The notes below the pieces were generated by a model. The model had not been told where the DNA came from. It ran no database searches and saw only the letters and a list, made by a program, of their open reading frames with translations. A stretch of 64,000 nt of DNA, taken from contig NZ_JAZQNU010000050.1 in assembly GCF_045627485.1 (NCBI RefSeq), positions 1,031 through 65,030 on the forward strand, in the 5' to 3' direction. Both the position numbers and the translations under genes were made by a program. This DNA is from Pedobacter sp. (GTDB lineage Bacteria; Bacteroidota; Bacteroidia; Sphingobacteriales; Sphingobacteriaceae). Positions 3,795-55,733 of this stretch are shown here, piece after piece; the first letter of the stretch is position 1, and each line of letters starts with the position of its first letter.

Positions 3795-3817
3795 AACAGA
3801 TAAAGCCACCGAGTGTT
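3795..3817 (-). promoter_or_regulatory. AAC-N16-TGTT element (putative ECF-sigma promoter)
   Basis: Minus strand AAAC-actcggtggctttatc-TGTTTTAA, 24 nt upstream of ORF 3770. Confidence 0.55.
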
Positions 3818-3960
3818 TTAAGGAGGCCGAAAAAGATCCGATTAGCGGCGATTTCTGCAGCCTGTAGCAATGCACTTAAAACATCAATAATCAATACGTT
3901 ATAAATATTTTAAACTAGGTATAAATACCAAAAAAAATGGCGTATCTTTGCGCAAATTTT

Positions 3961-4407
3961 ATGAAGAAAATAGTAGATTACAGAAAATTGTTAGGTGTAC
4001 AAAAGGATGCCGAGCTTAAAGAATTAAAGACCATTTACAGGAATTTAATGAAAGATTGCCACCCTGATAAGTTCCAGGACAATGAAGAAGCTAAAGTAGA
4101 AGCGGAACATAGAAGTAAAGATATCATTGAAGCTTACCACTTTTTAGTGAGTATTGCACCGGAAACGCTTGCCTTATCAAAAGAAGAGTATGACCAAACC
4201 ACAGGATTTTGCGGCATCGCAGATTTTACCTGGGAAAAAACAGTTTTAAAAGTGCATTTCCTTGACGGTAGTGGTTACGAATTTTTTGAGGTTCCACGTG
4301 CCGTTTATGTGAAATTAGTTAATGCAGATTCTCCAGGCCGCTTTGCGCGCAGACACATTTTTAGCGTATTCCCTTACAGGAACATTGCAAAAATGGAAAC
4401 CGCGTAA
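3961..4407 (+). CDS. J-domain (DnaJ) + KTSC domain protein
   Basis: YRKLLGV..CHPDKF J-domain with HPD; C-terminal LKVHF.DGSGYEFFEVP..VY..L..A.SPGRF KTSC pattern. The -7 element TATCTTTG at 3943-3950 supports the start at 3961 rather than 3937. Confidence 0.9.
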   Translation: MKKIVDYRKLLGVQKDAELKELKTIYRNLMKDCHPDKFQDNEEAKVEAEHRSKDIIEAYHFLVSIAPETLALSKEEYDQTTGFCGIADFTWEKTVLKVHFLDGSGYEFFEVPRAVYVKLVNADSPGRFARRHIFSVFPYRNIAKMETA

Positions 4408-4451
4408 GTTACCATCACGATATATTTTTTTAGCCTACTTTAGTCCTGTTT

Positions 4452-5402
4452 TCAGACTTTAGTAGGCTTTTTTGAGTTTTCCTGGATAGAATCACCTCCT
4501 GTTTCTACCTCCACTTCTCTTGTTGTTACCGCATAGGCGCTTGGGTGGATTTGAGTACCATACTTCACTGCATAGGCCTTGGTGAATTCTGCACCAAAGT
4601 AAAGAATGATTGATGAGTAATACGTCCATAACAGCAGGATGACCAATGAGCCCGCTGCACCGTAAGTACTACCCACATTACTTTTACTGATGTAAAAAGA
4701 GATCCCAAACTTACCAATCATAAATAATACAGCGGTTACAATGGCCCCAAGGGCCACATCTCGCCATTTGATTTCAGCGTCTGGCAGTACTTTGAATATC
4801 ACGCCAAAAATAGACGAAATTACTACCAGGGTAACGATCTGGTTGATAATATAAAACAACACTACAGATACGTCTGCAAACCTCGCTGCCAGTCTGTTGC
4901 TAAAACCATCGATAATTGCTGTAACACCTAATGATACCAACAGCAGGAAACCTAAACTGATGATAACCGAGAATGATAACAGCCTGTTTTGTATTAATTT
5001 TAACCAACCTTTTTTTGGTTTGGGTTTTAATCCCCAAATGGTGTTAATGGAATCCTGAATCTCCGCAAAAACTGTGGTTGCCCCCACCAGCAGGGTAGCA
5101 CCACCAATCATAATGGCGACCAGACTTTTACCACTAATGGCTGCTTTTTTTATCATGTCTTGCAACTGACTTGCAGTGTCTGGCCCCAGAAAACCTGCCA
5201 GCTGTTGATAAATTTGCCCTTCTATGGCTTCCCTTCCAAGAAAAAAGCTACATATTGCAATGATCACGATCATTAACGGCCCCATAGAGAAGACCGTATA
5301 ATAGGCTAAGGATCCGCTTAGTTTCGTTACTTTATGATCCGAAAAGCCACCAAATGCATCTTTTAGAACTTCCCAGGACCCTTTTAATGTAATTTTTTTC
5401 AT
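4452..5402 (-). CDS. YihY/virulence factor BrkB family membrane protein
   Basis: SLAYYTVFSMGP, multiple TM segments, STYGAAGSLVILLLWTYYSS. Confidence 0.92.
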   Translation of the reverse strand: MKKITLKGSWEVLKDAFGGFSDHKVTKLSGSLAYYTVFSMGPLMIVIIAICSFFLGREAIEGQIYQQLAGFLGPDTASQLQDMIKKAAISGKSLVAIMIGGATLLVGATTVFAEIQDSINTIWGLKPKPKKGWLKLIQNRLLSFSVIISLGFLLLVSLGVTAIIDGFSNRLAARFADVSVVLFYIINQIVTLVVISSIFGVIFKVLPDAEIKWRDVALGAIVTAVLFMIGKFGISFYISKSNVGSTYGAAGSLVILLLWTYYSSIILYFGAEFTKAYAVKYGTQIHPSAYAVTTREVEVETGGDSIQENSKKPTKV

Positions 5403-5433
5403 AATATCGGATTTAATTTAGCGTATATTTAAG

Positions 5434-5457
5434 AACAAAGTTCTAGTCAAAGTAGTT
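5434..5457 (-). promoter_or_regulatory. AAC-N17-TGTT element (putative ECF-sigma promoter)
   Basis: Minus strand AAAC-tactttgactagaactt-TGTTCTTA, 31 nt upstream of the yihY start. Confidence 0.5.
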
Positions 5458-5529
5458 TTTAAAGAATGTTTGTTAATTAATGATTAATAAAAAATAATAC
5501 ATTTACTTCTGTCTCTTAACAACAAAAAG

Positions 5530-5967
5530 ATGAAAAGAATATTTAATACAAATTATAACCACCAAAGTTTAGATTTTGGATTGTTAATTTTTCGAGTTGG
5601 ATTTGCTTCCATTATGTTAATGCAGCACGGCTGGAAAAAGCTGGGTGTTGTATTGGGTGGTGGGGAAATACAGTTTGGTGATCCGGTAGGCTTAGGTATG
5701 ACCGCATCTTTTTACCTGGTTATTTTTGCAGAAGTTTTCTGTTCTTTACTTGTCATATTAGGCCTTTTTACGCGACTTGCAGTGATTCCACTTATTATTG
5801 CGATGTCTGTAGCTTGTTTTATTGCTCATAGTGCCGATCCCTTTTCAAGACAGGAACCGAGTTTAATGTTCTTGATTGCCTTTATATTCCTGTTGTTTTC
5901 CGGACCTGGAAGATATAGCATAGACAGTATCATTTCCCGTAATACCAATAAACGCAGAACTTTTTAA
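5530..5967 (+). CDS. DoxX family membrane protein
   Basis: LLIFRVG..HGWKKL, AEVFCSLLVILGLFTRLA, GPGRYSID. Confidence 0.92.
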   Translation: MKRIFNTNYNHQSLDFGLLIFRVGFASIMLMQHGWKKLGVVLGGGEIQFGDPVGLGMTASFYLVIFAEVFCSLLVILGLFTRLAVIPLIIAMSVACFIAHSADPFSRQEPSLMFLIAFIFLLFSGPGRYSIDSIISRNTNKRRTF

Positions 5968-5980
5968 CAAACTTCATGTT
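5957..5980 (+). promoter_or_regulatory. GAAC-N16-TGTT element (putative ECF-sigma promoter)
   Basis: GAAC-tttttaacaaacttca-TGTT, 48 nt upstream of small ORF 6029. Confidence 0.5.
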
Positions 5981-6028
5981 AAATTAAGTTAAAGTTCACC
6001 TTGTAAATGTAGGTTAGCTCAAAATATT

Positions 6029-6193
6029 ATGATGGAAGACGTAAATTTCAAAATTGTTATCGGTGTTGTATTTGTTTTGTTAGCCATATGGCTCATCATC
6101 AGGCGGCAGAATCATAAGGATAAAGAAGACTTGGAAGAACATATCAAAAACTCAGACCTGAAGAATGATAAACATGATAACCCTCATGTATAG
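6029..6193 (+). CDS. Small single-TM protein (54 aa), not in ORF track
   Basis: Hand translation MMEDVNFKIVIGVVFVLLAIWLIIRRQNHKDKEDLEEHIKNSDLKNDKHDNPHV. One clean TM helix followed by RR and a charged tail; fills the intergenic gap. Confidence 0.75.
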   Translation: MMEDVNFKIVIGVVFVLLAIWLIIRRQNHKDKEDLEEHIKNSDLKNDKHDNPHV

Positions 6194-6221
6194 AATTTAA
6201 TATTTCGTCGTTATAGCTCAT

Positions 6222-6821
6222 ATGAACAAAGTTTTTTCAATTTGCTTGCTAGCGGTAACGCTATGGGGCTGCGGAATTAATAAACAAACACAACAGATCA
6301 AAGCCCTTGAGAAATGTACTTATAGAATTGCATCTGCAAATCAAATCTCCATTGCTGGTACGGATGTAAGAAGTATTCTTGAAAAAGATAACATTAACCT
6401 GGGCAGCTTACCAGGTTTAGCTTTAGGCGTTTTAAGGAAAGACATTCCGATGCGGGCGAAAATAAACCTTGAAATTTCCAATCCAACGGCAAACCTTGCT
6501 TCCGTAAATGAGTTTGAATATAAAATTCTAATTAACCAGGCTGAGATTGCAACGGGTTTTGTAAACCAACAAGTTGTGGTAAAACCGGGACAAAGCACCA
6601 TAGTGCCGATAGATATTAACGCCAATGTTTTTCCTTTTCTAAATAACAAAAAAGTGATGGATGAACTGTCCAGATTTTTCAAAGCGGGTAAAGGTGGTCC
6701 TGAACAAAAAGGAATTGTTACTTTAAAGATCAAACCTAGTTTTATGATTGGAAAAACCCTGGTTAAATACCCTGGTTTTATCACCGTAGATAAAGAGGTA
6801 AGCAGCAAAATCCTCTTGTAA
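6222..6821 (+). CDS. LEA_2/WHy-domain lipoprotein
   Basis: Lipobox LWGC; beta-rich LEISNPT..ASVNEFEYKILIN..IATG..VVVKPGQSTIVP pattern. Confidence 0.75.
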   Translation: MNKVFSICLLAVTLWGCGINKQTQQIKALEKCTYRIASANQISIAGTDVRSILEKDNINLGSLPGLALGVLRKDIPMRAKINLEISNPTANLASVNEFEYKILINQAEIATGFVNQQVVVKPGQSTIVPIDINANVFPFLNNKKVMDELSRFFKAGKGGPEQKGIVTLKIKPSFMIGKTLVKYPGFITVDKEVSSKILL

Positions 6822-6886
6822 AATCTTTATAGCAGCTCTTGGGTCTTTCTAATTTTTAATTAAATTGGGAACATCAAATATATACA

Positions 6887-9328
6887 ATGAGTTTCAGGTC
6901 CTGTAGAGCGTTTTTACTTCTTTTAATTGCCCCATATTGCCTTCATGCACAAGATGTGTCTATGGATGCCGCCACCATCAAACAAGGTTTAGAGGCCTTA
7001 AATGTAAGTGGGAGCGTATTGTATCTTGCTGCCCATCCAGATGATGAAAACACCCGTTTGCTGGCTTATCTTGCTAAGGAAAAGAAGGTACGCACAGGGT
7101 ATTTGTCGCTCACTAGGGGCGATGGCGGACAAAACCTCATCGGTACAGAACAGGCAGATTATTTAGGTTTATTGCGAACACAGGAACTTTTAGCCGCAAG
7201 AAGGGTGGATGGCGCCGAACAATTTTTCACCCGTGCCAACGACTTCGGCTTCTCTACTAACCCAGAAGAAAGTTTCAAGATCTGGGATAAACAAAAAATA
7301 TTAAGCGATGTGGTTTGGGTGATCCGTAAATTCCAGCCCGATATTATTATCACACGTTTCCCACCTGACTCCAGAGCCGGTCATGGTCACCATACGGCAT
7401 CGGCCATGTTAGCCCAGGAAGCCTTTAAAGCAGCTGCCGACCCTCGTCAGTTTCCTGAACAGTTGAAGTTGGTTAAACCCTGGCAGGTTACCCGGGTGGT
7501 ATGGAACACTTTCAATTTTGGCGGTAATAACACCACTTCCGAAGAGCAGTTGAAAATAGATGTAGGGGGGTATAATGTACTATTGGGTAAAAGTTATGGC
7601 GAACTTGCAGCCGCCAGTCGCTCCAAGCACCGGAGCCAGGGGTTTGGGTCTGCTGCCCAGCGTGGCACTGCTCACGAGTATTTTTATCCTCTTGCTGGCA
7701 AAATTGCAAAAGCTGATCTATTTGAAGGGATAGACTTAAGCCTTAATCGCCATGCGGGCATGGCTAAAGTACAGCAACTGCTTGACCAGGTTATTAAAGA
7801 TTACCGGGTTTCGAATCCTGCAGCTTCTCTGTCCTCGCTTTTAGCCTTACGACAGGCTGCAAAGGCACTTCCTTTTAAACACGAATTATTAGATGAGCTT
7901 ATTCTAGCCTGTGCAGGTATTTGGATAGAAGCCAATGTAGGCGCTGGAGTATACGCAGTTACAGCGCCTATACCCATGCAGTTACAGGTGGTGAACCGCG
8001 TTCCTGTAAAGCTGCCACTTCGTTTGCGTTTTACCAGTGGTAGTTTTAACCAGGAGCTTGTTTTGCAAGCTAACGAAATGCAGTCGGTTAAGTTCAATAT
8101 TCCTCCGTCAACTTTAGAAACAACACAGCCATACTGGCTGGCACAGAAACACCCTCTTGGAAACTATATTGTTGATTCTTTGGCCTTGCGGGGTCTGCCG
8201 GAGAATCCTGATCCTGGCGTTTTTCAGCTATCGGTTTTCTTTGGCGATGAAGAAATTAAGGTGCAACGGCCACTGGTTTATAAGTTTACAGACCCTGCCA
8301 GGGGCGAGATATATCAGCCACTTGTGGTTGCTCCACCGGTAACGGCAAACCTGTCGGAAACTGCAGCCTTATTTTCAGGCACCGAACCTAAAACCTTTAG
8401 TGTGCGCTTACGCAGCTTTAAGGATAACGTTAACGGTGTTTTAAAACCTGTAGTACCGGAAGGCTGGACCGTATCGCCTGCTCAAATCGACTTTAGCATC
8501 GCAAAGAAAGGTGCAGAAAGAAATTTCGACATCACCGTTCGTGCTGGTGGAACACAACAAACCGGTGTGTTGTCTTTACAACTCAATGTGGATGGTAAGA
8601 CCTATCAGCAGGGGCTGGAAAGGATAGACTTTGAGCACATTCCCCTGCAAACCGTATTTCCGGAAGCAGAGATAAAACTGGCACAAGCTAATCTGAAAAT
8701 TTTGCATAAGCGCATTGGTTATATATCAGGGGCGGGTGATTTGGTGCCGCAAGCTTTAAAGCAGGTGGGGTACGAGGTTACTCCGTTGAGCGTAAATGAA
8801 GTGCTTTATACCAATTTATCGCGTTTTGATGCTATTGTTACTGGGGTGCGCCTTTATAACGTGAATAACCAAGTTAGCGCCATGCAGCCACGTTTAATGA
8901 AATATGTAGAGGAGGGTGGTACCCTGCTGGTACAATACAATGTTAATAACCCTCTTAAGATAGATGAATTAGGTCCATACCCTTTTCAGTTGAGCCGTAA
9001 CCGGGTAACTGATGAACAATCGCCCGTAATTTTTTTAGCGCCCGATCATCAGGTGTTAAACTATCCGAATAAAATTACGGTGAAGGATTTTGAAGGTTGG
9101 GTGCAGGAGCGGGGGCTTTATTTTACGACGGCCGCCGACCCTAAATATACTTCTATATTAGCAATGAACGATCCCGGGCAAGCCCCTCAAAATGGCTCGT
9201 TGATCGTTGCCAATTATGGTAAAGGAAAATATGTCTATACCGGCTTGTCATTTTTTAGAGAACTGCCAGCAGGAGTTCCTGGTGCTTTCCGTTTGTTTGT
9301 GAACCTGATTGCTAAACGGGAAAACTAA
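6887..9328 (+). CDS. Exported PIG-L/LmbE family deacetylase with C-terminal class I glutamine-amidotransferase-like domain
   Basis: Signal peptide; AAHPDDE, TRGDGGQN and HGHH metal-deacetylase motifs; C-terminal YISGAGD..GGTLLVQYN. Confidence 0.88.
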   Translation: MSFRSCRAFLLLLIAPYCLHAQDVSMDAATIKQGLEALNVSGSVLYLAAHPDDENTRLLAYLAKEKKVRTGYLSLTRGDGGQNLIGTEQADYLGLLRTQELLAARRVDGAEQFFTRANDFGFSTNPEESFKIWDKQKILSDVVWVIRKFQPDIIITRFPPDSRAGHGHHTASAMLAQEAFKAAADPRQFPEQLKLVKPWQVTRVVWNTFNFGGNNTTSEEQLKIDVGGYNVLLGKSYGELAAASRSKHRSQGFGSAAQRGTAHEYFYPLAGKIAKADLFEGIDLSLNRHAGMAKVQQLLDQVIKDYRVSNPAASLSSLLALRQAAKALPFKHELLDELILACAGIWIEANVGAGVYAVTAPIPMQLQVVNRVPVKLPLRLRFTSGSFNQELVLQANEMQSVKFNIPPSTLETTQPYWLAQKHPLGNYIVDSLALRGLPENPDPGVFQLSVFFGDEEIKVQRPLVYKFTDPARGEIYQPLVVAPPVTANLSETAALFSGTEPKTFSVRLRSFKDNVNGVLKPVVPEGWTVSPAQIDFSIAKKGAERNFDITVRAGGTQQTGVLSLQLNVDGKTYQQGLERIDFEHIPLQTVFPEAEIKLAQANLKILHKRIGYISGAGDLVPQALKQVGYEVTPLSVNEVLYTNLSRFDAIVTGVRLYNVNNQVSAMQPRLMKYVEEGGTLLVQYNVNNPLKIDELGPYPFQLSRNRVTDEQSPVIFLAPDHQVLNYPNKITVKDFEGWVQERGLYFTTAADPKYTSILAMNDPGQAPQNGSLIVANYGKGKYVYTGLSFFRELPAGVPGAFRLFVNLIAKREN

Positions 9329-9430
9329 ATGGGAAATGAAAGAAACTGGAATAGAATATACTGGCTGCTCATCATCTGGTTGGGTCTAATTGTTTTAATG
9401 TTGTACTTTTTTACCCATTACTTTGCATGA
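9329..9430 (+). CDS. Small single-TM protein (33 aa) between deacetylase and symporter, not in ORF track
   Basis: MGNERNWNRIYWLLIIWLGLIVLMLYFFTHYFA. ATG directly follows the upstream TAA, and its TGA overlaps the symporter ATG (ATGA). Confidence 0.8.
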   Translation: MGNERNWNRIYWLLIIWLGLIVLMLYFFTHYFA

Positions 9431-11136
9431 GTAACCTGGATTGGGCAGTACTGATTTGTACCCTTTTATTTATCGTGGTATATGGTATTTATAAGAGTCG
9501 GGGTGCGGAAAATATTCAGGGGTACTTGTTAGGCAACCAAACCATGCCATGGTACAGCGTATGTTTGTCGGTAATGGCTACCCAGGCCAGTGCAATCACC
9601 TTTTTATCTGCACCAGGGTTGGGGTATTCGGCGGGAATGAGTTTCGTTCAATTTTACCTTGGTTTGCCACTGGCCATGATTGTGCTCTGCGTAACTTTTG
9701 TGCCTATCTTTCATCGGCTAAAAGTCTATACGGCCTATGAATACCTCGAACAGCGCTTTGATTTAAAGACACGGGCATTAACTGCTTTCCTGTTTTTAAT
9801 TCAACGGGGTTTGTCTACAGGTATCACCATCTATGCACCATCCATTATTTTATCTATAATTCTGAATATCAACCCTGTATACACCACCATTTTCATCGGC
9901 AGTATAGTGGTGTTATATACTGTTTATGGGGGTACAAAGGCAGTATCCTATACACAAATGTTGCAAATGGCCATTATATTTTGTGGGTTGTTTGCCGCTG
10001 GTGTCATCGTTGTTCAACTGTTACCCTCCAGTGTTGGCTTCGGCAAGGCAATTAGCATTGCCGGCAAAATGGGGCGTACGGAAGCTATTAATTTTGATTT
10101 CGACTGGAATAATCGTTACACTCTGTGGAGCGGTTTAATCGGAGGTTTTTTCCTGCAATTATCTTATTTCGGTACCGACCAGAGCCAGGTAGGAAGATAC
10201 CTCACCGGATCGTCGGTAGGGCAGAGCCGCATGGGATTACTCATGAACGGACTAGTTAAAATACCGATGCAGTTTTTGATCCTGCTCATCGGGGTGCTTG
10301 TTTTTACGTTTTACCAATACACCAAACCTCCCGTGTTTTTTAACCGCTTTGAGCTTAATAAACTGGAGAAAAGTGCTTATGCACCCGAGTTGGATGCTAT
10401 TAAGGCCGAGCACCAACAGGTGTTCCAGGTGAAACAGCAGGAGCTGGATAAACTCGGACTTGCTATTGACCAGGGGAATGAGCGTCACATTGATGCACAA
10501 AGAACCCTGCTTGCAGCTGCAGATGCAAAAGAGAAAGAAGTGCGTAAGAAAGCTACCGACCTGATGTTGAAGAATGATCCCAACGCCGATGTTAACGATA
10601 ACAATTATATCTTTCTGAGCTTTGTTACCGAATACCTTCCTAAAGGATTAATAGGTTTATTAATTGCCATAATCTTTCTAGCTTCCATGGGGTCTACTGC
10701 AAGTGCTTTAAATTCACTTGCTTCCACCAGTGTGATTGATATTTATAAACGACTGATTATAAAGGAAGGATCAGATGAGCATTACCTGAAAGCATCGCGC
10801 TGGCTTACATTTTTCTGGGGTGTTGTGTGTATTTTGATGGCACTTTATGCCAGTAAAATTGGTAATCTGATTGAAGCGGTGAATGTATTGGGCTCTTATA
10901 TCTACGGAACAATCCTCGGTGTGTTTCTGGTCGCTTTTTATATAAAACATGTAAACGGCCGGGCAGTATTTTTGGCTGCAGTGCTATCCGAAATCACAGT
11001 GTGCATTTTCGGTTACCTGGAGGTGGTGGCTTACCTGTGGCTTAACATTATCGGCTGTTTATTAGTGGTGGTTTTATCGCTGCTGATGCAGGGGCTGTTG
11101 AAAAAGCCTGCTCCAATTGTAGAAAAAAGCGTCTAA
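9427..11136 (+). CDS. Sodium:solute symporter (SSS/SLC5) family
   Basis: ATQASAITF, TAYEYLEQRF, YFGTDQSQVGRYL, ASMGSTASALNSLA; about 13 TM segments. Confidence 0.95.
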   Translation: MSNLDWAVLICTLLFIVVYGIYKSRGAENIQGYLLGNQTMPWYSVCLSVMATQASAITFLSAPGLGYSAGMSFVQFYLGLPLAMIVLCVTFVPIFHRLKVYTAYEYLEQRFDLKTRALTAFLFLIQRGLSTGITIYAPSIILSIILNINPVYTTIFIGSIVVLYTVYGGTKAVSYTQMLQMAIIFCGLFAAGVIVVQLLPSSVGFGKAISIAGKMGRTEAINFDFDWNNRYTLWSGLIGGFFLQLSYFGTDQSQVGRYLTGSSVGQSRMGLLMNGLVKIPMQFLILLIGVLVFTFYQYTKPPVFFNRFELNKLEKSAYAPELDAIKAEHQQVFQVKQQELDKLGLAIDQGNERHIDAQRTLLAAADAKEKEVRKKATDLMLKNDPNADVNDNNYIFLSFVTEYLPKGLIGLLIAIIFLASMGSTASALNSLASTSVIDIYKRLIIKEGSDEHYLKASRWLTFFWGVVCILMALYASKIGNLIEAVNVLGSYIYGTILGVFLVAFYIKHVNGRAVFLAAVLSEITVCIFGYLEVVAYLWLNIIGCLLVVVLSLLMQGLLKKPAPIVEKSV

Positions 11137-11158
11137 ACTATTTTTAATAACCGCTGTT
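11135..11158 (+). promoter_or_regulatory. AAC-N16-TGTT element (putative ECF-sigma promoter)
   Basis: AAAC-tatttttaataaccgc-TGTTTTAA, 34 nt upstream of the DUF4142 gene. Confidence 0.55.
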
Positions 11159-11192
11159 TTAACAGGAAGTTTAACCTGAAAAAATATAACTT

Positions 11193-11801
11193 ATGAAAAA
11201 AATTAGTTTAGCTGTATTGGCCCTTGCCTTGTGTGCCACCCAAGCATGCCAGAGTCCGGAGAACAGATCCGCAGAAGCGCATGAGTCGGATTCTATGATT
11301 GTAAATGAAAATAAAAACGAAAAAAAAGCCGGTACCGAGAATCATGCTGGTAATATTACCAACAAAACCAACGCCGACGACGATAGCGCCGGTTTTATGA
11401 AAGACGCTGCTGGAGCTGGAATGATGGAGGTTGTTTTCGGTGAGATGGCGGTTAAAAAAGCCAGTAACCCTAAGGTAAAGGCTTTTGCAGAGCAGATGGT
11501 GAAGGATCATAGCAAAGCCAACAAAGAGTTAGCAATAATTGCTGAGAAGGCTAGTGTCTTACTACCTGCAGACTTACACCCTGACCATAAGAAACATTAT
11601 CAACAGATGTCGAAGTTATCGGGTGCTGCGTTTGATAAGGAGTATATGCAAATGATGGTGAATGACCATCAAAAAGCAGTTGAACTTTTTAAGTATGGTC
11701 AGGATGTAAATAAACATGACCTTGTAGCCTTTGCCAAAGAAACGTTGCCAGTAATTCAACAACATCATGCACAGGCAAAAACGATATTAGGAAGTTTATA
11801 A
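11193..11801 (+). CDS. DUF4142 domain lipoprotein (ferritin-like helical bundle)
   Basis: Signal peptide with Cys; MMEV..GEMA..KASNPKVKAFAEQMVKDHSKAN, FDKEYMQMMVNDH, TLPVIQQH. Confidence 0.9.
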   Translation: MKKISLAVLALALCATQACQSPENRSAEAHESDSMIVNENKNEKKAGTENHAGNITNKTNADDDSAGFMKDAAGAGMMEVVFGEMAVKKASNPKVKAFAEQMVKDHSKANKELAIIAEKASVLLPADLHPDHKKHYQQMSKLSGAAFDKEYMQMMVNDHQKAVELFKYGQDVNKHDLVAFAKETLPVIQQHHAQAKTILGSL

Positions 11802-11822
11802 AAATAAGTCCTTTTTTATGGC

Positions 11823-11857
11823 ACAAGGCTAACACCATTTTTAGGGTTAGCCTTTGT
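11823..11857. terminator. Probable terminator hairpin between convergent genes
   Basis: ACAAGGCTAAC..GTTAGCCTTTGT inverted repeat. Confidence 0.6.
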
Positions 11858-11869
11858 CATTTATAGCGT

Positions 11870-38689: not shown

Positions 38690-38701
38690 TGACAGGGATC
38701 A
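38690..38701. promoter_or_regulatory. Fnr-type box TGAC-AGGG-ATCA upstream of ccoI
   Basis: Perfect TGAY-N4-RTCA, extended GTGAC..ATCAC, 71 nt upstream of ccoI; overlaps the stop of the nei-like gene. Confidence 0.65.
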
Positions 38702-39439
38702 CTTATTGTAAAGCTGCTGGCAATTATTGCAGAAGAAAGTTCGGCGGTTTGTTTTGCCGAGATACTCCTTAATCATGGGTAGGTTGCACCTAAGGCAGGT
38801 GCGCTTGGTATGGGCCAGCCAATGTTTTTTAAGGGTAAATTCTTTTTTCCAGCGCAGGAAGTCGTAGCTGTAAATGCGTGCCTCACGTACCATCTGCAAT
38901 AGTAGATCTGGAGGTAAGGCACCTACCTGGCTGCTAGGGTGTACATATATCCGGTAAAGGACTTCGTTTTTGATGATGTTTCCTACGCCGGCAAAGATGT
39001 CCTGATCAAGAAGGGCATCGCAGACTAAAGTTTTGGGTTGCTTCTTTAGTTTGTTGATGGCGGCATGTTCATCCCACGTGGGCGACAATACATCGGCCGA
39101 CCAGTCGTAAACCAGATCAGGATCACCTTCTATAATTTTGAGGGAACAACCATAAAAGTTAAGTTCAGCATTTTCAAAGTGTAAACTTAAGCGGACAGGT
39201 GTTTCCTTGCGCTCGTTAATCCGATAGGTACCAAACAATAGAAAGTGAACCCTAAGGCTAAAGTCGGGGAAGCAGAGCAGAAAGTGCTTGCCCCAACTTT
39301 TAATGGCAGTTATAGGTTCACCAGACATTCGATCTTTTTCAATCGAGGTATTTCCTGCTACCGCGATTACTTTTTGCCCTTTCAGTTTTAATGGCTCTAA
39401 CAGTTCTTTAAGGATTACAATTGATGGACCTTCGGGCAT
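38699..39439 (-). CDS. Fpg/Nei family DNA glycosylase (endonuclease VIII-like)
   Basis: N-terminal MPEG, H2TH motif LLDQDIFAGVGNI, C-terminal CLRC..CNNC zinc finger. Confidence 0.93.
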   Translation of the reverse strand: MPEGPSIVILKELLEPLKLKGQKVIAVAGNTSIEKDRMSGEPITAIKSWGKHFLLCFPDFSLRVHFLLFGTYRINERKETPVRLSLHFENAELNFYGCSLKIIEGDPDLVYDWSADVLSPTWDEHAAINKLKKQPKTLVCDALLDQDIFAGVGNIIKNEVLYRIYVHPSSQVGALPPDLLLQMVREARIYSYDFLRWKKEFTLKKHWLAHTKRTCLRCNLPMIKEYLGKTNRRTFFCNNCQQLYNK

Positions 39440-39443: not shown

Positions 39444-40490
39444 TTAATTTAGGGAAGCCATGTCGATAACAAAACGGTAATGCACATCGCCGGCCAGGGT
39501 ACGCTCGTACGCTTCATTAATCTGGTCGATGGAAATCATTTCAACATCGGAGGTGATGCCATGTTCGGCACAGTAGTCGAGCATTTCCTGGGTTTCTTTT
39601 ATTCCGCCAACCAGAGAGCCCACCAGGCTCCGGCGTCCGCCGATCAAAAGAAATGCCTCTACAGTAGACGGCTCAGGAGGAGCGCCTACTACAATCATCA
39701 CCCCATTTGTATTTAACAAAGGCAGGTAAGCGTTATAGTCGTGTTTTGCCGAAACCGTGTCGATGATGAAATCAAAATGATTCGCCAGTTTCTCCTTCGT
39801 TTCTTTTTTTGTTGTGATCTCGAAGTGATGTGCACCTAATCTTTCAGCATCTTTTTGTTTCGAAGCCGAGCGGCTTAATACAGTAACGATCGCACCCATG
39901 GAAGCAGCAAGTTTAACGGCCATATGGCCTAAACCGCCTAAGCCTACCACAGCCAGTTTATCACCTGCTTTTACGTTCCAGTGTTTTAAAGGAGAATAGG
40001 TAGTAATTCCTGCGCAAAGTAATGGTGCTACCTTCTCAAGTGGTAATTTATCTGAAACACTGAGTACGAATTTCTCCGTAACTACGATGTGACTGGAATA
40101 ACCGCCATAAGTGATTGTTTTTTTGTCCTGCAACAGGGAATTGTAGGTTTGGGAATTGCCATTTTCGCAATATTGTTCCTGGTGATTATTGCAGTTTTTG
40201 CAGTGGCCACAAGAATCTACGAAGCAACCTACACCTACTGTATCACCCACTTTAAAACGGCTTACTTGTTGGCCAACACGTGTAACAGTACCCACTATTT
40301 CATGCCCGGGAACTACGGGGTACATGGTGCCGCCCCACTCATTTCTTGCTGTATGGATGTCGGAGTGACAAACACCACAATATAATATTTTAATTTCCAC
40401 ATCGTCAGCTAATGGCTCTCTGCGGTTTAACTGGTAAGGTTCTAGAGGTTTGTCTGCACTTTTGGCAGCATATGATTTAATACCATTCAT
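39444..40490 (-). CDS. Zn-dependent NAD(P) alcohol dehydrogenase (cinnamyl-ADH/YahK-like)
   Basis: CGVCHSD, GHEIVG, CGHCKNC, PLLCAGITTYSP, GLGGLG, RFVID. Confidence 0.95.
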   Translation of the reverse strand: MNGIKSYAAKSADKPLEPYQLNRREPLADDVEIKILYCGVCHSDIHTARNEWGGTMYPVVPGHEIVGTVTRVGQQVSRFKVGDTVGVGCFVDSCGHCKNCNNHQEQYCENGNSQTYNSLLQDKKTITYGGYSSHIVVTEKFVLSVSDKLPLEKVAPLLCAGITTYSPLKHWNVKAGDKLAVVGLGGLGHMAVKLAASMGAIVTVLSRSASKQKDAERLGAHHFEITTKKETKEKLANHFDFIIDTVSAKHDYNAYLPLLNTNGVMIVVGAPPEPSTVEAFLLIGGRRSLVGSLVGGIKETQEMLDYCAEHGITSDVEMISIDQINEAYERTLAGDVHYRFVIDMASLN

Positions 40491-40527: not shown

Positions 40528-40551
40528 AACAAAAATAGGTGCGCATTGTTC
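40528..40551 (-). promoter_or_regulatory. GAAC-N16-TGTT element (putative ECF-sigma promoter; symmetric)
   Basis: Minus strand GAAC-aatgcgcacctatttt-TGTTCTTA, 37 nt upstream of the ADH; the plus strand also reads GAAC-N16-TGTT. Confidence 0.55.
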
Positions 40552-40803
40552 TGCCTAAATTTAAGGATGGGTAAACAATTCCGCCTTCCTTCGGTTAAGT
40601 TTGAAGCATGAGCAATTATCCAATGATACGTTATTATGACAGTATAGCCGTATGCGCTCATAATGAAATAACGGATTTAACGTTCTATAACCGTTCATTG
40701 ATAATTTTCTTTAATTTAGCGCTATTGTGAATTAAATTGAAAAATTCATTCACTGAACATAAAAAGTTGAACTTATAGCGTAATAACATAAATTATTTTT
40801 TAA

Positions 40804-46494: not shown

Positions 46495-46497
46495 AAC

Positions 46498-47331: not shown

Positions 47332-47354
47332 GTTAAATTTGTTTACATTACATT

Positions 47355-48302: not shown

Positions 48303-48304
48303 AC

Positions 48305-48892
48305 ATGTTAAAAATAGGAATAACCGGTGGCATAGGAAGTGGGAAAACTACGGTTTGCCGGGTTTTTGAAACACTGGGTATACCTGTGTTTTACGCAGAT
48401 GATGTTGCCAAAGACATTATGGTAACAGATTCTTTGCTAATAGAAGGTGTAAAGAATGCTTTTGGTGAGGAGAGTTACCTGGAACATCAGGTATTAAATA
48501 GAGGGCATATTGCACAAATTGTATTTAATAACGACACTGAATTAGCCAAATTAAATGCACTAGTTCATCCCGCAGTATTCCGTGCTTTTGATCAATGGGT
48601 TGCTGAAGTTCCGGCACACACACCTTATATTTTAAAAGAAGCGGCCCTGTTGTTTGAAAGTGATTCCTATAAAATGTGCGATAAAACCATCGTCGTGATA
48701 GCACCGCTTTCCTTAAAAAAGAAACGCGTGATGTTACGCGATCAGGTTACGGAGGCCCAAGTGCAAGCACGTATAGACAAACAGTTCAGTGACGAACAGA
48801 AAATTAAAATGGCCGATTTTTTAATTCATAACGAGGAATCATCTTCCATCATTCTACAGGTGCTTACCTTGCATGAACGGTTTATAAAATAG
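48305..48892 (+). CDS. coaE: Dephospho-CoA kinase
   Basis: IGITGGIGSGKT, LNALVHP, EAALLFE. Confidence 0.97.
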   Translation: MLKIGITGGIGSGKTTVCRVFETLGIPVFYADDVAKDIMVTDSLLIEGVKNAFGEESYLEHQVLNRGHIAQIVFNNDTELAKLNALVHPAVFRAFDQWVAEVPAHTPYILKEAALLFESDSYKMCDKTIVVIAPLSLKKKRVMLRDQVTEAQVQARIDKQFSDEQKIKMADFLIHNEESSSIILQVLTLHERFIK

Positions 48893-48897
48893 AATAC

Positions 48898-49839: not shown

Positions 49840-49991
49840 TAGAAGGAGTAGACTTTTATTTTAACGATGCCGGTTTAATGGTTTTTACCGCGCACTACCA
49901 CCTGAAACGCGGGAAATGCTGCAAAAATAAATGCTTGCATTGCCCATGGAAATACGGACAAAGAGAAAAGGATAACCAGAAGAAGCGATAA
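49836..49991 (+). CDS. DUF5522-like Cys-rich small protein (51 aa), not in ORF track
   Basis: MIEGVDFYFNDAGLMVFTAHYHLKRGKCCKNKCLHCPWKYGQREKDNQKKR; ATGA overlap with the upstream stop. Confidence 0.88.
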   Translation: MIEGVDFYFNDAGLMVFTAHYHLKRGKCCKNKCLHCPWKYGQREKDNQKKR

Positions 49992-50002
49992 GGTCGAACC
50001 CC

Positions 50003-50452
50003 ATGCAAGTACAAGAAGATATAAATACTGTGAAATATGAAAATATTTTCCAGCAAGGTGCCCTGAAAATTACAACCATCCATCATTGGCTCAACAACCA
50101 GATGCGCGATAAATTGTCGCCATTTGATCTCACTGTGCAACAATATCATGTATTACGCATCTTGCAACGTGACTTTCCAAAGCCGGCTACCATTAACCTG
50201 ATCAAAACAAGGATGCTCGATAAAATGAGTGATGCTTCCAGAATTGTAGAACGGTTAATTCAAAAGCACCTGGTGATTAAATCCAATAACTTAAACGACC
50301 GTCGTGCTACAGATATTAACCTTTCTCCAGCAGGACTTGAACTGCTTGCCGATATCGATAAATTGTCAATCGTCGAGCAGCTGCTCACCGACAAATTAAC
50401 AGCAACTGAGGCAGAACAGCTAAACCTCCTGCTCGATAAAATCCGTGCTTAA
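50003..50452 (+). CDS. MarR family transcriptional regulator
   Basis: LTVQQYHVLRIL, SDASRIVERL, DRRATDINLSPAG. Confidence 0.93.
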   Translation: MQVQEDINTVKYENIFQQGALKITTIHHWLNNQMRDKLSPFDLTVQQYHVLRILQRDFPKPATINLIKTRMLDKMSDASRIVERLIQKHLVIKSNNLNDRRATDINLSPAGLELLADIDKLSIVEQLLTDKLTATEAEQLNLLLDKIRA

Positions 50453-51168
50453 TGTCCGGTAACGAAGAAACCGAGTAACCCAATAGCCGTTCCAGTTAAC
50501 ACTGCAATCATCTTTTTCTTGTTGATTTTATGGTCTACACTAGACTCAAATAAGATGGTTGTTGAGATGTGCAGGAATATCCCGATAACAACGCCCATCA
50601 TTTTATTGAAATAAGCTTCTACACCACCAATTGTTCCATTACTCAACCCTGTACTTACATAAAAACCCAGTGGGGCCATTACCGCGAAAACAGCGATGTA
50701 GAACAAGATGGTGGCCGGTTTAAAATGACTTTGCAATAGAATGCTGGCGAGGGCAAATGCTGCCGGAATATGGTGCAATGCTATACCAAAAATTAGCTCG
50801 TTATGCTGGTCTTTAGCCAAAGGCATACCTTCTACAAAGGCGTGTAAACACAAACTGATCATAATGCCATAAGGAAAAACATTATTGTGTTCGTGTTTAT
50901 GGATATGCCCATGTTCTACCCCCTCAGAAAACTTTTCCAGGAATACCTGTAAAAGGAAACCAATCAAGATAAAAATTCCAATTTCATGGGCATCTGTTCC
51001 ACTATACGCTTCAGGAATGAGGTAGAGTACGGTGATTGCAAAAAGATAGGCACCACTAAAAGAGAGGATAAGTTTTAATGATTCCGACTTGTCACTTTTT
51101 ACCAGGAAGATCGCAGATCCGCCGAAAAAAGCACTAAAGAATAAAACAAGCAATTTCCAGATTTCCAT
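50449..51168 (-). CDS. ZIP family zinc/metal transporter
   Basis: His-rich loop HGHIHKHEH, LHAFVEG, LHHIPAA. Confidence 0.9.
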   Translation of the reverse strand: MEIWKLLVLFFSAFFGGSAIFLVKSDKSESLKLILSFSGAYLFAITVLYLIPEAYSGTDAHEIGIFILIGFLLQVFLEKFSEGVEHGHIHKHEHNNVFPYGIMISLCLHAFVEGMPLAKDQHNELIFGIALHHIPAAFALASILLQSHFKPATILFYIAVFAVMAPLGFYVSTGLSNGTIGGVEAYFNKMMGVVIGIFLHISTTILFESSVDHKINKKKMIAVLTGTAIGLLGFFVTGH

Positions 51169-51731
51169 TATAATTGTTGTTGTGTTTTTTTATAGAGTTT
51201 GGAAGTGAAAAATCCAATCATCGTACCTAAAATTGCCCCGCACATCACATCTACAGGATAATGTACACCCACATAGATCTGTGAAAAGCTGATGATAACG
51301 GCCCAAAAAATGCCGATGGGTAATATCGGTTTCCAGCGGCCATAAAAAACCATAATCAGGAAAACAGCGATCGCAAAATGATTGGTTGCATGTGCCGAAG
51401 GGAAGCTGTAACCACTACCACAGCCCACGCGATGGATAATATCCTCTGCGAGGCTTAAGTCGTTACATGGCCGTAACCTGCCCGCAAGTGGTTTAATTAT
51501 TCGGGAGGCTGTCAGATCGCCAATTGCAAAAGTTAACAGGAGGAAACCGACAATATAAACACCTTGTTTTTTATACTCTCTTATACAGAAAATGATGATA
51601 AACAGGTATAATGGCGCCCAAAAATATCTGTTGCGCATTAAAGGCATCAACCAATCAAAAAAGTTGTTGGCCAATCCCCTGTGTATCGATAAAAACAGGT
51701 CCGTGTCAAATTCCAATAAACCGCCTATCAT
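51168..51731 (-). CDS. PAP2 family phosphatase
   Basis: K...RLRP, SFPSAHA, SQIYVGVHYPVDV. Confidence 0.93.
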   Translation of the reverse strand: MIGGLLEFDTDLFLSIHRGLANNFFDWLMPLMRNRYFWAPLYLFIIIFCIREYKKQGVYIVGFLLLTFAIGDLTASRIIKPLAGRLRPCNDLSLAEDIIHRVGCGSGYSFPSAHATNHFAIAVFLIMVFYGRWKPILPIGIFWAVIISFSQIYVGVHYPVDVMCGAILGTMIGFFTSKLYKKTQQQL

Positions 51732-52459
51732 GTCTTTTTACAGATGAGAATTAGTCTGTCCGACTTATTTTCCTCGAAAGGATTCAAGGCATAATCACCA
51801 AAAGTCTCCACTAATTTTAAACCGCTTAAAGCAAACATTCTTTCGAAATCCTCCAATGTAAAGGCTTTTACGCGTTCTTCGAAAGCGTAGTCTTTCCCTT
51901 TATGTTCAAAATTGATATGCTTAATGATCTTGCCGTCAGACACGAATTTCTTAATCTGAAATTCTATCCCATCTACGGTTTTTATTTCCTGGTGGGTTAA
52001 GTTTCTTAGAATTTTCAGCGTATTGAAGTAATCAATAACAACCGTTCCGTCTTCTTTAATTGCTTTTCTGAATGATTTTAACGCGTCGACATGATCTTTT
52101 TCCGTTTCGAAGTAGCCAAAACTTGTAAACAGGTTTAAAGCAAGGTCAAAATAATTGATATAAAGTAATTTGCGCATATCATGCACAAAAAAGCGTAAGT
52201 GTTTTTGTTCAAACTGCTGTGCATATTTAATGCTCTGTTCCGAAAGATCGATCCCAGTTACATCATAACCTTTTTTGTTAAGGTAAATTGCATGACGGCC
52301 ACGGCCACAAGCGATATCAAGGATTTTTGCATGGGCAGATGGTTTTAGGTATGCAGAAAGGTTGTCAATTAAAAATTCCGCTTCTTCATCATTGCGTTGA
52401 CTGTAAAGTATGTGATAATAAGGCGAATTAAACCAATATTGAAACCATTTTCGCTGCAT
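51728..52459 (-). CDS. Class I SAM-dependent methyltransferase
   Basis: ILDIACGRGRH, GIDLS, LFTSFGYF. -7 element TATCTTTG at 52491-52498 (minus). Confidence 0.93.
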   Translation of the reverse strand: MQRKWFQYWFNSPYYHILYSQRNDEEAEFLIDNLSAYLKPSAHAKILDIACGRGRHAIYLNKKGYDVTGIDLSEQSIKYAQQFEQKHLRFFVHDMRKLLYINYFDLALNLFTSFGYFETEKDHVDALKSFRKAIKEDGTVVIDYFNTLKILRNLTHQEIKTVDGIEFQIKKFVSDGKIIKHINFEHKGKDYAFEERVKAFTLEDFERMFALSGLKLVETFGDYALNPFEENKSDRLILICKKT

Positions 52460-52580
52460 TGCGCTGTATATTTATATTTTAAACAAAAAGCAAAGATAGT
52501 ATTTTGAATAGCATGCAAAGGGATTAATTATGATGGCCCTTAAATTTTTGCTATTTTTGGGCGATCTAAAACAACTCATT

Positions 52581-53969
52581 TTGACACTTATAAAATCTAT
52601 TTCCGGAATCCGGGGAACCATCGGCGGAATCGCTGGAAACGGCTTAACGCCAATTGATATCGTAAAATTTACTGCCGCTTACGGCACCTGGGTACTCAAC
52701 AAAACCAACATCAGGAAAATTGTTTTAGGGCGCGATGCCCGCATATCAGGGGAAATGGTTAATAACCTGGTAACCGGTACCTTGCAAGGACTTGGGATAG
52801 AGGTGATTGACCTTGGTCTTTCTACAACCCCAACGGTAGAAATTGCCGTGCCAATGGAAAAAGCTGGCGGTGGAATTATTTTAACAGCGAGCCACAACCC
52901 GAAGCAATGGAATGCGCTGAAATTATTAAACGATAAGGGCGAATTTATCAGTGATGTGGAAGGGAAAGAATTACTAGAACTTGCCGAAAGTTCAAGTTTC
53001 AATTTTGCAGAAGTAAACAATTTAGGTCGCGTAGTTTTAAACGATACCTACCTGCAGAAACATATCGAGGCAGTATTAGCCTTGCCACTAGTAGATGTTG
53101 ATGCAATTAAAGCAGCCAACTTTAAAATTGTTATCGATTGTGTAAACTCTACAGGTGGAATTTTTGTCCCTGCGCTTTTAAAGGCTTTAGGAGTAGAAAC
53201 AGTTTATGAATTGTATTGCACACCTGATGGTAACTTTCCCCACAATCCGGAGCCTTTGCCAGAAAATTTAACAGAAATTGCCAAAGTTGTACAGCAGAAG
53301 AATGCCGACCTGGGTATCGTTGTTGATCCTGATGTAGATCGTCTTGCTTTTGTATGTGAAGATGGAACTATGTTTGGTGAAGAGTATACGTTAGTAGCTG
53401 TTGCCGACTATGTTATTCAAAACACGCCAGGAAATACCGTTTCAAATTTATCTTCTACTCGTGCTTTAAGAGATGTGACGGAGAAAGCCGGCGCTGAATA
53501 CAACGCTGCGGCAGTAGGAGAGGTGAATGTAGTAAATAAAATGAAAGAAACCAATGCCGTAATTGGCGGGGAGGGTAATGGTGGAATTATTTATCCGGAA
53601 TCACATTATGGCAGAGATGCTCTAGTGGGAATTGGTTTGTTCTTAACACACCTGGCTAAATTCGGTAAATCGATCTCCTTATTGCGCAGCAGTTATCCAA
53701 ATTATCATATCTCTAAAAATAAAATTACCCTCACACCTGAAATGGACATAGATGCGTTGCTATTAAAGGTGCAGGAAAAGTATAAAGCCCAGCCTCATAG
53801 CACCATTGACGGTTTGAAAATTGAATTTGAACACCAGTGGGTTCATTTACGACGTTCTAATACAGAGCCGATCATCAGAATCTATAGCGAAGCGGAAAAT
53901 GAAAACATAGCAGAGGCTTTAGCAACTAAAATTATTACTGATATCAAAGAAATATTAAAATTGAACTAA
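52581..53969 (+). CDS. glmM: Phosphoglucosamine mutase (phosphohexomutase); TTG start
   Basis: SISGIRG, TASHNP, DPDVDR, GGEGNGG. The -7 element TATTTTTG at 52552-52559 lies inside the longer ORF-track extension and supports a start at 52581. Confidence 0.88.
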   Translation: MTLIKSISGIRGTIGGIAGNGLTPIDIVKFTAAYGTWVLNKTNIRKIVLGRDARISGEMVNNLVTGTLQGLGIEVIDLGLSTTPTVEIAVPMEKAGGGIILTASHNPKQWNALKLLNDKGEFISDVEGKELLELAESSSFNFAEVNNLGRVVLNDTYLQKHIEAVLALPLVDVDAIKAANFKIVIDCVNSTGGIFVPALLKALGVETVYELYCTPDGNFPHNPEPLPENLTEIAKVVQQKNADLGIVVDPDVDRLAFVCEDGTMFGEEYTLVAVADYVIQNTPGNTVSNLSSTRALRDVTEKAGAEYNAAAVGEVNVVNKMKETNAVIGGEGNGGIIYPESHYGRDALVGIGLFLTHLAKFGKSISLLRSSYPNYHISKNKITLTPEMDIDALLLKVQEKYKAQPHSTIDGLKIEFEHQWVHLRRSNTEPIIRIYSEAENENIAEALATKIITDIKEILKLN

Positions 53970-55120
53970 TGATGAACAGAATCTATTTAGATAATGCGGC
54001 CACTACTCCTCTTGATAAAGAGGTGCTTTCCGAGATGGTCAATGTAATGGATAACTATTATGGTAATCCATCCTCTATTCATGCCCAGGGGCGTGAAGTG
54101 AGAACATTGATTGAGAAAGCGCGTAAAACGGTAGCCGGTTTATTAAATGCTGTTCCTGCAGAGATATTCTTTACCTCAGGTGGTACTGAAGCTGATAATA
54201 CCGCTATTAGGTGTGGTATTGCTGCTTTTGGATTAAAACATGCCATAACCTCCAAATTAGAACACCATGCGGTAGAACACACGTTAGATAGTTTGTTGAA
54301 AACTGGCGTGATTGACAAAATCAGTTATGTGAATACCGATACCAAGGGTAATATCGATTATGATCATCTTGAGCAACTGTTAAAAGAAAACGAACGTTCT
54401 TTTGTCTCATTGATGCATGCCAACAACGAACTGGGCACCCTTACGGACATTGTGCGTGTCGGGGAAATCTGTGAAACGTATGATGCCATTTATCATTGTG
54501 ATACCGTACAGACCATGGGTCATTACAAACACGATGTGAGAGCACTTAAAGCACATTTTATCGTTTGTGCCGCGCATAAATTGCACGGGCCAAAAGGGGT
54601 GGGGTTCTTATATGTTAACCACAACATCAAAATCAGTCCGATGATTTTTGGTGGTGCGCAGGAAAGAAACATGCGTGGTGGAACAGAAAATATCTATGGT
54701 ATTGTTGGCCTGGCCAAAGCTCTTGAAATGGCCTATGCATCCATGGAACAACACCAGAAACATATACAGGGTCTAAAAACTTATTTAAAGGAACAGCTGC
54801 TGGCAGAAATACCAGGTATAGCCTTTAATGGCGAGCATGACCCTGAGACCAGCTTATACACTGTGCTTAACGTATCTTTCCCAGAAATGGACATGGGCGA
54901 TATGCTATTGTTTAACCTCGACATTAACGGAATTTCTGCTTCTGGTGGTAGTGCCTGTTCTTCGGGGTCAAATATTGGTTCACATGTGTTAACTGCCATT
55001 GGTGCAGATCCGGGCAGGCCATCTGTACGTTTTTCTTTCAGTAAATTGAATACGAAAGAAGAACTGGATTATGTGGTTCAGAAAGTAAAATATATTGTTG
55101 AGCAAAATGTAAATGTTTAG
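53969..55120 (+). CDS. Cysteine desulfurase (IscS/NifS class V PLP enzyme)
   Basis: YLDNAATT, GNPSS, HKLHGPKG, SGGSACSSG. Confidence 0.95.
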   Translation: MMNRIYLDNAATTPLDKEVLSEMVNVMDNYYGNPSSIHAQGREVRTLIEKARKTVAGLLNAVPAEIFFTSGGTEADNTAIRCGIAAFGLKHAITSKLEHHAVEHTLDSLLKTGVIDKISYVNTDTKGNIDYDHLEQLLKENERSFVSLMHANNELGTLTDIVRVGEICETYDAIYHCDTVQTMGHYKHDVRALKAHFIVCAAHKLHGPKGVGFLYVNHNIKISPMIFGGAQERNMRGGTENIYGIVGLAKALEMAYASMEQHQKHIQGLKTYLKEQLLAEIPGIAFNGEHDPETSLYTVLNVSFPEMDMGDMLLFNLDINGISASGGSACSSGSNIGSHVLTAIGADPGRPSVRFSFSKLNTKEELDYVVQKVKYIVEQNVNV

Positions 55121-55138
55121 CATATTTAAATACTTATC

Positions 55139-55170
55139 AAAAAGCCTTGGCAAAACGCCAAGGCTTTTTT
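55139..55170 (+). terminator. Intrinsic terminator
   Basis: AAAGCCTTGGC-aaaac-GCCAAGGCTTT plus T tract. Confidence 0.85.
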
Positions 55171-55183
55171 TATACCTTTAAAC

Positions 55184-55711
55184 ATGCCGCTACATTACCA
55201 TCGGATTCAGCACGACGACGATCCAGCGCTTGCTCTTATCAGGGACTTGTATGAAAGTGCTTTTCCTGAGCATGAGCGTCGCGACTGGGCATCATTCCTA
55301 ACGCTGATTAATGACCCACGCATGCATGTTGATGTGATTCTTGATGCGGAGCAAGCCCTTGGTTTTTTAATTTGGTGGAAGTTGAATGATTATTGCTTTA
55401 TCGAGCACTTTGCAATTTCTGAACGGGTAAGAGGTGCAGGTTACGGCTCCGAAGTCATTAAACATTTCCTGAAAGAGTCTAAGGGTAAAGTTCTGCTGGA
55501 AGTAGAGCCTCCTGGAACGCCAGATGCCGACCGAAGAATTACCTTTTATGAAAGGTTAGGTTTTGTGATCGTTAATATCGATTACAGACAACCCTCATAC
55601 GTTGAAAAAGGTCTTTCTTACCCCATGTATCTCCTTCAAAGTGGTGCAGAAAGTGAAACTGAAATAGCGAAGCTTATCCCCGTAATTCATTCAGCAGTAT
55701 ATTTTATATAA
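55184..55711 (+). CDS. GNAT family N-acetyltransferase
   Basis: YESAFP..ERR, FAISERVRGAGYGS, RRITFYERLGF. Confidence 0.9.
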   Translation: MPLHYHRIQHDDDPALALIRDLYESAFPEHERRDWASFLTLINDPRMHVDVILDAEQALGFLIWWKLNDYCFIEHFAISERVRGAGYGSEVIKHFLKESKGKVLLEVEPPGTPDADRRITFYERLGFVIVNIDYRQPSYVEKGLSYPMYLLQSGAESETEIAKLIPVIHSAVYFI

Positions 55712-55733
55712 ACAAAGCGCCGCTATAGATGTT
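55710..55733 (+). promoter_or_regulatory. AAC-N16-TGTT element (putative ECF-sigma promoter)
   Basis: AAAC-aaagcgccgctataga-TGTTATTA, 42 nt upstream of ORF 55776. Confidence 0.55.

Follow-up and report, generated by a model that had tools for sequence, protein, structure and literature searches.

A PM2-like AAC-N16/17-TGTT element as the probable promoter of an ECF-type sigma factor in front of general-stress-type genes of a Pedobacter genome

A 64,000-nt stretch of a Pedobacter sp. genome (assembly GCF_045627485.1, contig NZ_JAZQNU010000050.1, positions 1,031 to 65,030; hereafter the window) carries a bipartite element of the form AAC-N16/17-TGTT upstream of several stress-type genes. We conclude, with a probability of roughly 0.78, that this element, in its fuller form AAC(C/A)ttt-N-tTGTTwwa with a spacer of 16 or, less often, 17 nt, is the −35/−10 promoter of an extracytoplasmic function (ECF)-type sigma factor and the Sphingobacteriaceae counterpart of PM2, a promoter motif of Bacteroides thetaiotaomicron. 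A first-pass annotation of the window had proposed an alternative-sigma promoter of a stress regulon, and this proposal is supported by the orientation, position and conservation of the element, by its identity of form with PM2, and by the content of the genes behind it. We observe directly that the motif exists, that it is enriched, oriented, positioned and conserved, which genes follow it, and that it has the form of PM2, for which transcription start sites (TSSs) are mapped. To our knowledge, Bacteroidota lack RpoS, SigB and EcfG, and their general stress response is poorly defined; PM2, whose sigma factor is tentative, is the one mapped class of such alternative promoters that we know of.

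The assembly that contains the window comprises 3.62 Mb in 214 contigs. To measure enrichment, we used the spacer length as an internal control and counted AAC-Nk-TGTT for every k from 12 to 21. In intergenic DNA the motif occurs 229 times at N16 and 128 times at N17, against 86–105 times at any other spacer. In coding DNA the same two spacers are depleted, with 627 copies at N16 and 662 at N17 versus about 715–800 at other spacers, which suggests that spurious promoters of the class are selected against within genes. Because the coding depletion cancels the intergenic excess, whole-genome counts of the motif show nothing, and we dropped them as a cross-taxon test for this reason.

An unbiased dyad scan of upstream regions, covering every pair of 3-mers at spacings of 10–25, places AAC-N17-GTT first (184 versus 73, z = 12.9) and AAC-N16-TGT second, far above the remaining dyads. 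Genome-wide, sense-oriented copies that continue as TGTTnTWA number 23 versus about 2, and we estimate that the genome holds some 70–100 real sites. At the −10 box, TGTT alone is enriched in this genome; the 3′-box variants GGTT, CGTT, TGTC and TGTA are not enriched, nor are the −35 variants GAC and AAT. GGTT and TGTC/TGTA nonetheless stand at conserved positions in relatives.

The element points toward genes. In gaps between tandem genes, non-palindromic AAC[^A]N15TGTT occurs 37 times in the forward and 19 times in the reverse orientation, over a background of about 14, and convergent gaps show no motif enrichment. The positions of the sites peak at 20–50 nt before start codons. The flanks are asymmetric, with aAAAC(C/A)ttt on the upstream side and tTGTTwwa on the downstream side, and sites without the T before GTT are not enriched. 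The σA −7 box TAnnTTTG overlaps the motif in 4 of 129 sites and is found at 17% of motif genes versus 29% of all genes. An AAC/16-nt/GTT architecture is typical of ECF sigmas, and the element has the AAC-containing −35, the 16–17 nt spacer, the short GT-containing −10 and the direction toward the gene of an ECF-type promoter.

About 45% of the sites, three of them in the window, are perfect AACA...TGTT palindromes, which would suit an operator, bound by a dimeric transcription factor at the inverted repeat AACA-N15-TGTT, instead of a promoter. The orientation counts argue against this, since the enrichment of non-palindromic sites is confined to those that point at the gene. Palindromic sites show about the same enrichment as one-directional ones (2.9-fold and 2.6-fold). 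In addition, the conserved sites are asymmetric, with AACC(T)TTT in the 5′ half and TGTTwwa in the 3′ half, 4-bp half-sites 15 bp apart are atypical of dimeric factors, and in B. thetaiotaomicron this element keeps a fixed distance of 8–10 nt to the mapped TSSs. We regard an operator as very improbable and rejected it on the orientation bias and the asymmetric conserved half-sites. ECF-type promoters have an inherent AAC/GTT symmetry, and this, together with a mild preference for A after AAC, accounts for the quasi-symmetry of the promoter element.

PM2 was identified by differential RNA sequencing of B. thetaiotaomicron as a second, near-palindromic promoter motif whose boxes stand at −30 and −10; it precedes 75 coding genes, among which functions in oxidative stress and stationary phase are over-represented, and that work named no reader for it (Ryan et al. 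2020, PMC7366714). In the BtModulome study of 2025, PM2 has TGTT at about −10, the motif of Table S12 is RAAMAAWT...WTGTTWWW, the promoters of the regulons of the ECF sigmas SigH-1 (BT1197; ppGpp- and Cur-linked) and SigW-1 (BT1817) resemble PM2, and the promoter of BT1197 itself is of the σA type (PMC12596196). We compared the SigH-1 iModulon with our element using the 51-nt sequences upstream of mapped TSSs in Table S9 of that study. AAC-N16/17-(T/G/C)GTT ends 8–10 nt before the TSS in 8 of 13 of these promoters, for example those of BT3852, BT3823, BT2573 and BT2572. The window element therefore follows the promoter grammar of PM2; it is identical to PM2 in form and would be a new instance of a known promoter class.

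Conservation of the element at orthologous genes, a check proposed in the first-pass annotation, is nearly complete at two loci. Upstream of DUF4142 genes of the genus (37–53% identity), AAC-N16/17-TGTT is found at −44 to −75 in 29 of 30 loci, and other spacers are found in 0–1 loci. Upstream of the SRPBCC gene, AAC-N16-TGTT is present in 21 of 21 genus loci, either at −45 to −60 or at about −290 to −400, ahead of a small leading open reading frame (ORF) as in the window. At both loci the spacer sequences vary freely, both boxes and the distance between them are kept, and the conserved sites have an asymmetric AACC −35. The YihY orthologues (72–76% identity) carry AAC-N16-GGTT in the corresponding upstream region in 7 of 12 cases, a count read by eye, the scripted scan not having included GGTT; further members of the same 12 have AAC-N17-GGTT (one), AAC-N17-AGTT (two) or a TGTT copy further upstream (one).

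Some DUF4142 genes of other genera, at L096 (genome G080) and L101 (genome G054), have another ECF-like element, GTAACC-N-CGAC or TCTAAC, in their upstream region instead of AAC-N16-TGTT.

All six AAC-N16/17-TGTT elements that had been reported for the window were recovered on the same strands and to within one base, and in our own ORF-based gene calls TGTT precedes the start codon by 24 to 48 nt. Five of the six continue as TGTTnTWA, as had been described. The six sites had also been said to lack the σA −7 box TAnnTTTG; this is true of five, but at the alcohol dehydrogenase (ADH) site TATTTTTG overlaps TGTT. The 110 nt upstream of 62 genes in the window contain seven sense-oriented copies of AAC-N16/17-TGTT and 0–1 copies at other spacers; base-shuffled upstream regions contain a mean of 1.1 copies, giving P of about 0.0005 for the observed seven. 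The remaining window matches, which lie inside genes, look like chance.

On the minus strand, the promoter-like element AACACTCGGTGGCTTTATCTGTT (3795..3817, N16, on the plus strand likewise a palindrome) stands 24 nt before an 84-aa ORF (3516-3770, from the ORF calls), the first in an operon (2831..3770) that continues, on the same strand, with the gene for a 231-aa SRPBCC protein with a YgaP-like TM domain (2831-3526; Pfam Polyketide_cyc2, 1.4e-9, and YgaP-like_TM, 4.6e-7). Also on the minus strand, AACTACTTTGACTAGAACTTTGTT (5434..5457, N17) lies 31 nt before the YihY/BrkB gene (4452-5402). On the plus strand, AACTTTTTAACAAACTTCATGTT (5958..5980, N16) lies 48 nt before a 54-aa membrane ORF (6029-6193), which precedes a 199-aa lipoprotein gene (6222-6821), and AACTATTTTTAATAACCGCTGTT (11136..11158, N16) lies 34 nt before the DUF4142 gene (11193-11801), also on the plus strand. 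The palindromic AACAATGCGCACCTATTTTTGTT (40528..40550, minus strand, N16) is placed 37 nt before the Zn-ADH gene (39444-40490, minus strand), which is followed by a gene for an Fpg/Nei glycosylase (38699-39439). The seventh copy, AACCGAAGGAAGGCGGAATTGTT (40574..40596, minus strand, N16), was absent from the first-pass annotation; the ADH site follows 46 nt downstream of it and the ADH gene 83 nt downstream, and the significance of this copy alone is uncertain. The last element, the palindromic AACAAAGCGCCGCTATAGATGTT (55711..55733, plus strand, N16), lies 42 nt before the gene for a 71-aa acidic hydrophilic protein (55776-55991, plus strand). Pfam supports the products named earlier for the SRPBCC, BrkB/YihY, DUF4142, Zn-ADH and Fpg/Nei genes, but the LEA_2 assignment of the 199-aa protein is sub-threshold (E = 0.02). 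A further palindromic AACA-N15-TGTT lies at 39543-39565, within the ADH coding region and 103 nt upstream of the Fpg/Nei gene, and could be an internal promoter or chance.

Across the genome, we defined the predicted regulon as genes with AAC-N16-TGTT 12–130 nt upstream, of which there are 109. Consistent with the stress-type gene content proposed for the window, Pfam identifies among them CsbD, Dps-type ferritin, Fe/Mn SOD, OsmC/Ohr and DUF892 (YciE/F), as well as Pyrid_ox_like (general stress protein 26, GSP26, type), Lipocalin_2 (Blc), DUF2383 and DJ-1/PfpI; the Pfam score of YtxH, also among the motif genes, is just under the cut-off. Most paralogues of the confirmed stress families in the genome carry the motif, a count with some circularity, as motif-bearing genes had supplied the queries. 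By eye from the translations, other motif genes appear to encode a PoxB-like enzyme, an aldo-keto reductase, a short-chain dehydrogenase/reductase, a transaldolase, a GH15 enzyme, an RRM protein and many small acidic hydrophilic proteins. Like the gene for the 71-aa window protein, those for several such small proteins outside the window have the motif upstream. The gene content points to a regulon of general-stress character.

Three further groups of motif-bearing genes were seen outside the window. On contig C200, positions 6976-74108 hold at least 12 motif-bearing transcription units, including those for the PoxB-like enzyme, the Blc lipocalin, the GSP26-like protein, YtxH and the RRM protein, and this region looks like a stress-gene island. 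At C49:581-1647 and C63:17266-19468 there is a near-identical divergent pair, a small acidic protein gene and an Xaa-Pro aminopeptidase-like gene that share one palindromic motif between them, which may have been duplicated recently or only in the assembly. A MerR/B12-binding (LitR/CarH-like) gene at C27:21658-22548 also carries the motif.

The first-pass annotation had placed the sigma gene outside the window, and indeed all of the 2 RpoD-like and 15 ECF genes of the genome lie elsewhere. As a BT1197 query we used a homologue from a Bacteroides metagenome-assembled genome, which was located via the published promoter sequence and has a pyruvate carboxylase subunit B gene directly after it, matching the published BT1196 context. 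This query matches the products of C182:2352-2882(-) (40% identity, E = 5e-39) and C34:11426-11956(-) (37%, E = 1e-34), and the next-best ECF reaches only 4e-13. Neither gene has an obvious anti-sigma neighbour. On homology, we give even odds to this SigH-1-like pair being the reader of the motif. The sigma gene on C182 is followed, within C182:1348-2882, by genes for a membrane protein and a small protein that by eye are lycopene-cyclase-domain-like and cytochrome-b5-like; these neighbours and the motif-bearing LitR/CarH-like gene hint at a light or carotenoid branch.

Several results weigh against an ECF-type promoter, or against the SigH-1-like pair as its reader. The link between PM2 and its sigma is called tentative by its authors (PMC12596196). 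The C182 sigma matches 5–6 B. thetaiotaomicron paralogues at 40–43% identity with similar scores, a relationship at the level of the family and not one-to-one. The usual ECF autoregulation is absent here, because none of the 15 ECF genes, both candidates included, has AAC-N16/17-TGTT close upstream; such autoregulation is common but not universal among ECF sigmas. Outside Sphingobacteriaceae, the DUF4142 genes lack the motif in four genomes without and in four genomes with a SigH-1-like sigma. In 800-kb samples, the Pedobacter genome itself has 25 copies at N16 versus about 7 at other spacers, and genome G076 (family f14), in which a SigH-1-like sigma is present, has 10 versus about 6, an enrichment that is at most weak; a 400-kb sample of B. 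thetaiotaomicron contains too few sites to judge.

Two sites in the window call for caution. At site 5958, the motif recurs in 1 of 24 relatives at the 199-aa lipoprotein gene, and the 54-aa ORF is absent from relatives and specific to this genome; this is the weakest of the six sites and goes with the lineage-specific small membrane ORF. At the ADH site, conservation is partial: the motif is found at the homologue loci of 9 of 24 relatives, but the closest orthologues have AAC-N17-TGTC or TGTA. Because the element there overlaps the σA −7 box (TATTTTTG+TT), the ADH promoter may be dual, served by σA and an alternative sigma, and to that extent a σA promoter is possible. In ADH homologues of the genus (L247-L257), TAnnTTTGTT is kept, with AAC 16 nt upstream. 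Separately, in all genus relatives examined, a conserved CCGTTATAGC box (window 6195-6221; L216-L221) stands directly before the ATG of the 199-aa lipoprotein gene, which in relatives directly follows DoxX.

Some of these results could also be accommodated by an alternative-sigma promoter whose reader is not the SigH-1-like pair but one of the 13 remaining ECFs or a SigW-1-type factor. The assignment to SigH-1 derives only from homology to the tentative B. thetaiotaomicron link, neither the C182 nor the C34 gene is autoregulated, G076 has a SigH-1-like sigma yet little motif enrichment, and SigW-1 (BT1817) is also named for PM2-like promoters (PMC12596196). Against a different reader, the C182 and C34 products alone are clearly separated from the other ECFs by their similarity to BT1197, the four genomes without a SigH-1-like sigma also lack the motif before DUF4142, and the 800-kb sample of G092 (family f12), which has no SigH-1-like sigma, contains 2 copies at N16 and shows no enrichment. 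We consider a different reader unlikely, though it deserves to be kept in mind.

The two RpoD-like genes, C162:20484-21344(-) and C200:80140-81003(+), encode proteins of 286 and 287 aa that are 55% identical. Having two such genes, one of them on C200, the contig rich in motif-bearing stress genes, raises the idea that the C200 paralogue reads the motif as a stationary-phase sigma. Regions 2.4 and 4.2 of the two proteins are near-identical, so the second protein would be expected to read σA-type TTTG/TAnnTTTG promoters and is an unlikely reader of the motif, the architecture of which belongs with ECF sigmas. We rejected it on the near-identity of its DNA-binding regions to those of σA and give it almost no credence.

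Taken as the promoter of an ECF-type sigma, the element suggests the following mechanism. With the sigma bound, RNA polymerase would begin transcripts about 9 nt past TGTT, giving leaders of ~15–40 nt for the window units. The sigma, most likely one or both of the paralogous SigH-1 (BT1197) homologues on C182 and C34, would drive about 70–100 units enriched in general-stress, oxidative-stress and desiccation-type proteins, and the six window units would be members of this regulon. Binding of the element by a sigma in this organism and a joint induction of the genes under stress are inferences.

In this soil Sphingobacteriaceae genome the PM2-type grammar is the dominant one in upstream regions, comes with a textbook general-stress gene set and is conserved across the genus, and stress regulons of environmental Bacteroidota become predictable from sequence. 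Because the genome has only two SigH-1-like sigmas rather than 5–6, it offers a simpler system for testing the link between sigma and promoter. More speculatively, this promoter class and the anti-sigma-less SigH-1-like ECFs might constitute the missing general stress response of Bacteroidota, a functional equivalent of SigB, RpoS and EcfG that has expanded to ~100 promoters in soil Sphingobacteriaceae, with the motif purged from coding DNA by selection, and that gut Bacteroides (PM2) and possibly marine Flavobacteriales photoprotection regulons have in common with them; we hold this broader proposal to be doubtful at present.

Among known systems, the EcfG-dependent general stress promoters of Alphaproteobacteria have the form GGAAC-N16/17-CGTT. 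The first-pass comparison with them stands for the AAC at −35, the 16–17 nt spacer and the GTT at −10, but not for CGTT, which is not enriched here (13 versus 11.5), and the flanks of the genome sites show no preference for G two bases before AAC as in GGAAC. The EcfG regulon overlaps with the regulon here in CsbD, Dps, DUF892/YciF-like and DUF4142-type proteins; the candidate sigmas are not of the EcfG type, and the EcfG system appears to be an analogue, of which the motif here is not a member. The repertoires of SigB of Bacillus and RpoS of Escherichia coli overlap with it in CsbD, YtxH, GSP26/YdaG, Dps, OsmC, Blc, YciE/F and the PoxB-like enzyme, but neither the sigma families nor the promoter sequences are related. 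A literature search for a general stress sigma reported from Flavobacterium or Pedobacter yielded nothing relevant, and the text of the ECF classification paper contains no matching group motif.

The closest likeness is to PM2. Both motifs are bipartite and near-palindromic, (A/G)AAC-N16/17-TGTT, both have a −10 TGTT followed by an A/T-rich stretch, and neither uses the σA TAnnTTTG box. Both stand before tens of genes with oxidative-stress and stationary-phase functions (Dps, ferritin-like and OmpA-type proteins), here as judged by gene content. The PM2-linked ECF sigma BT1197 has homologues here that are likewise not autoregulated. The hosts belong to different orders, Sphingobacteriaceae here and Bacteroidaceae there, and start sites are mapped for PM2, whereas the motif here is known from sequence alone. 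In this genome the motif is far more prominent than PM2, ranking first among the dyads and numbering about 100 sites in 3.6 Mb, and its gene set is broader and more desiccation- and general-stress-like, with CsbD, YtxH, DUF4142, SRPBCC, GSP26 and small acidic proteins.

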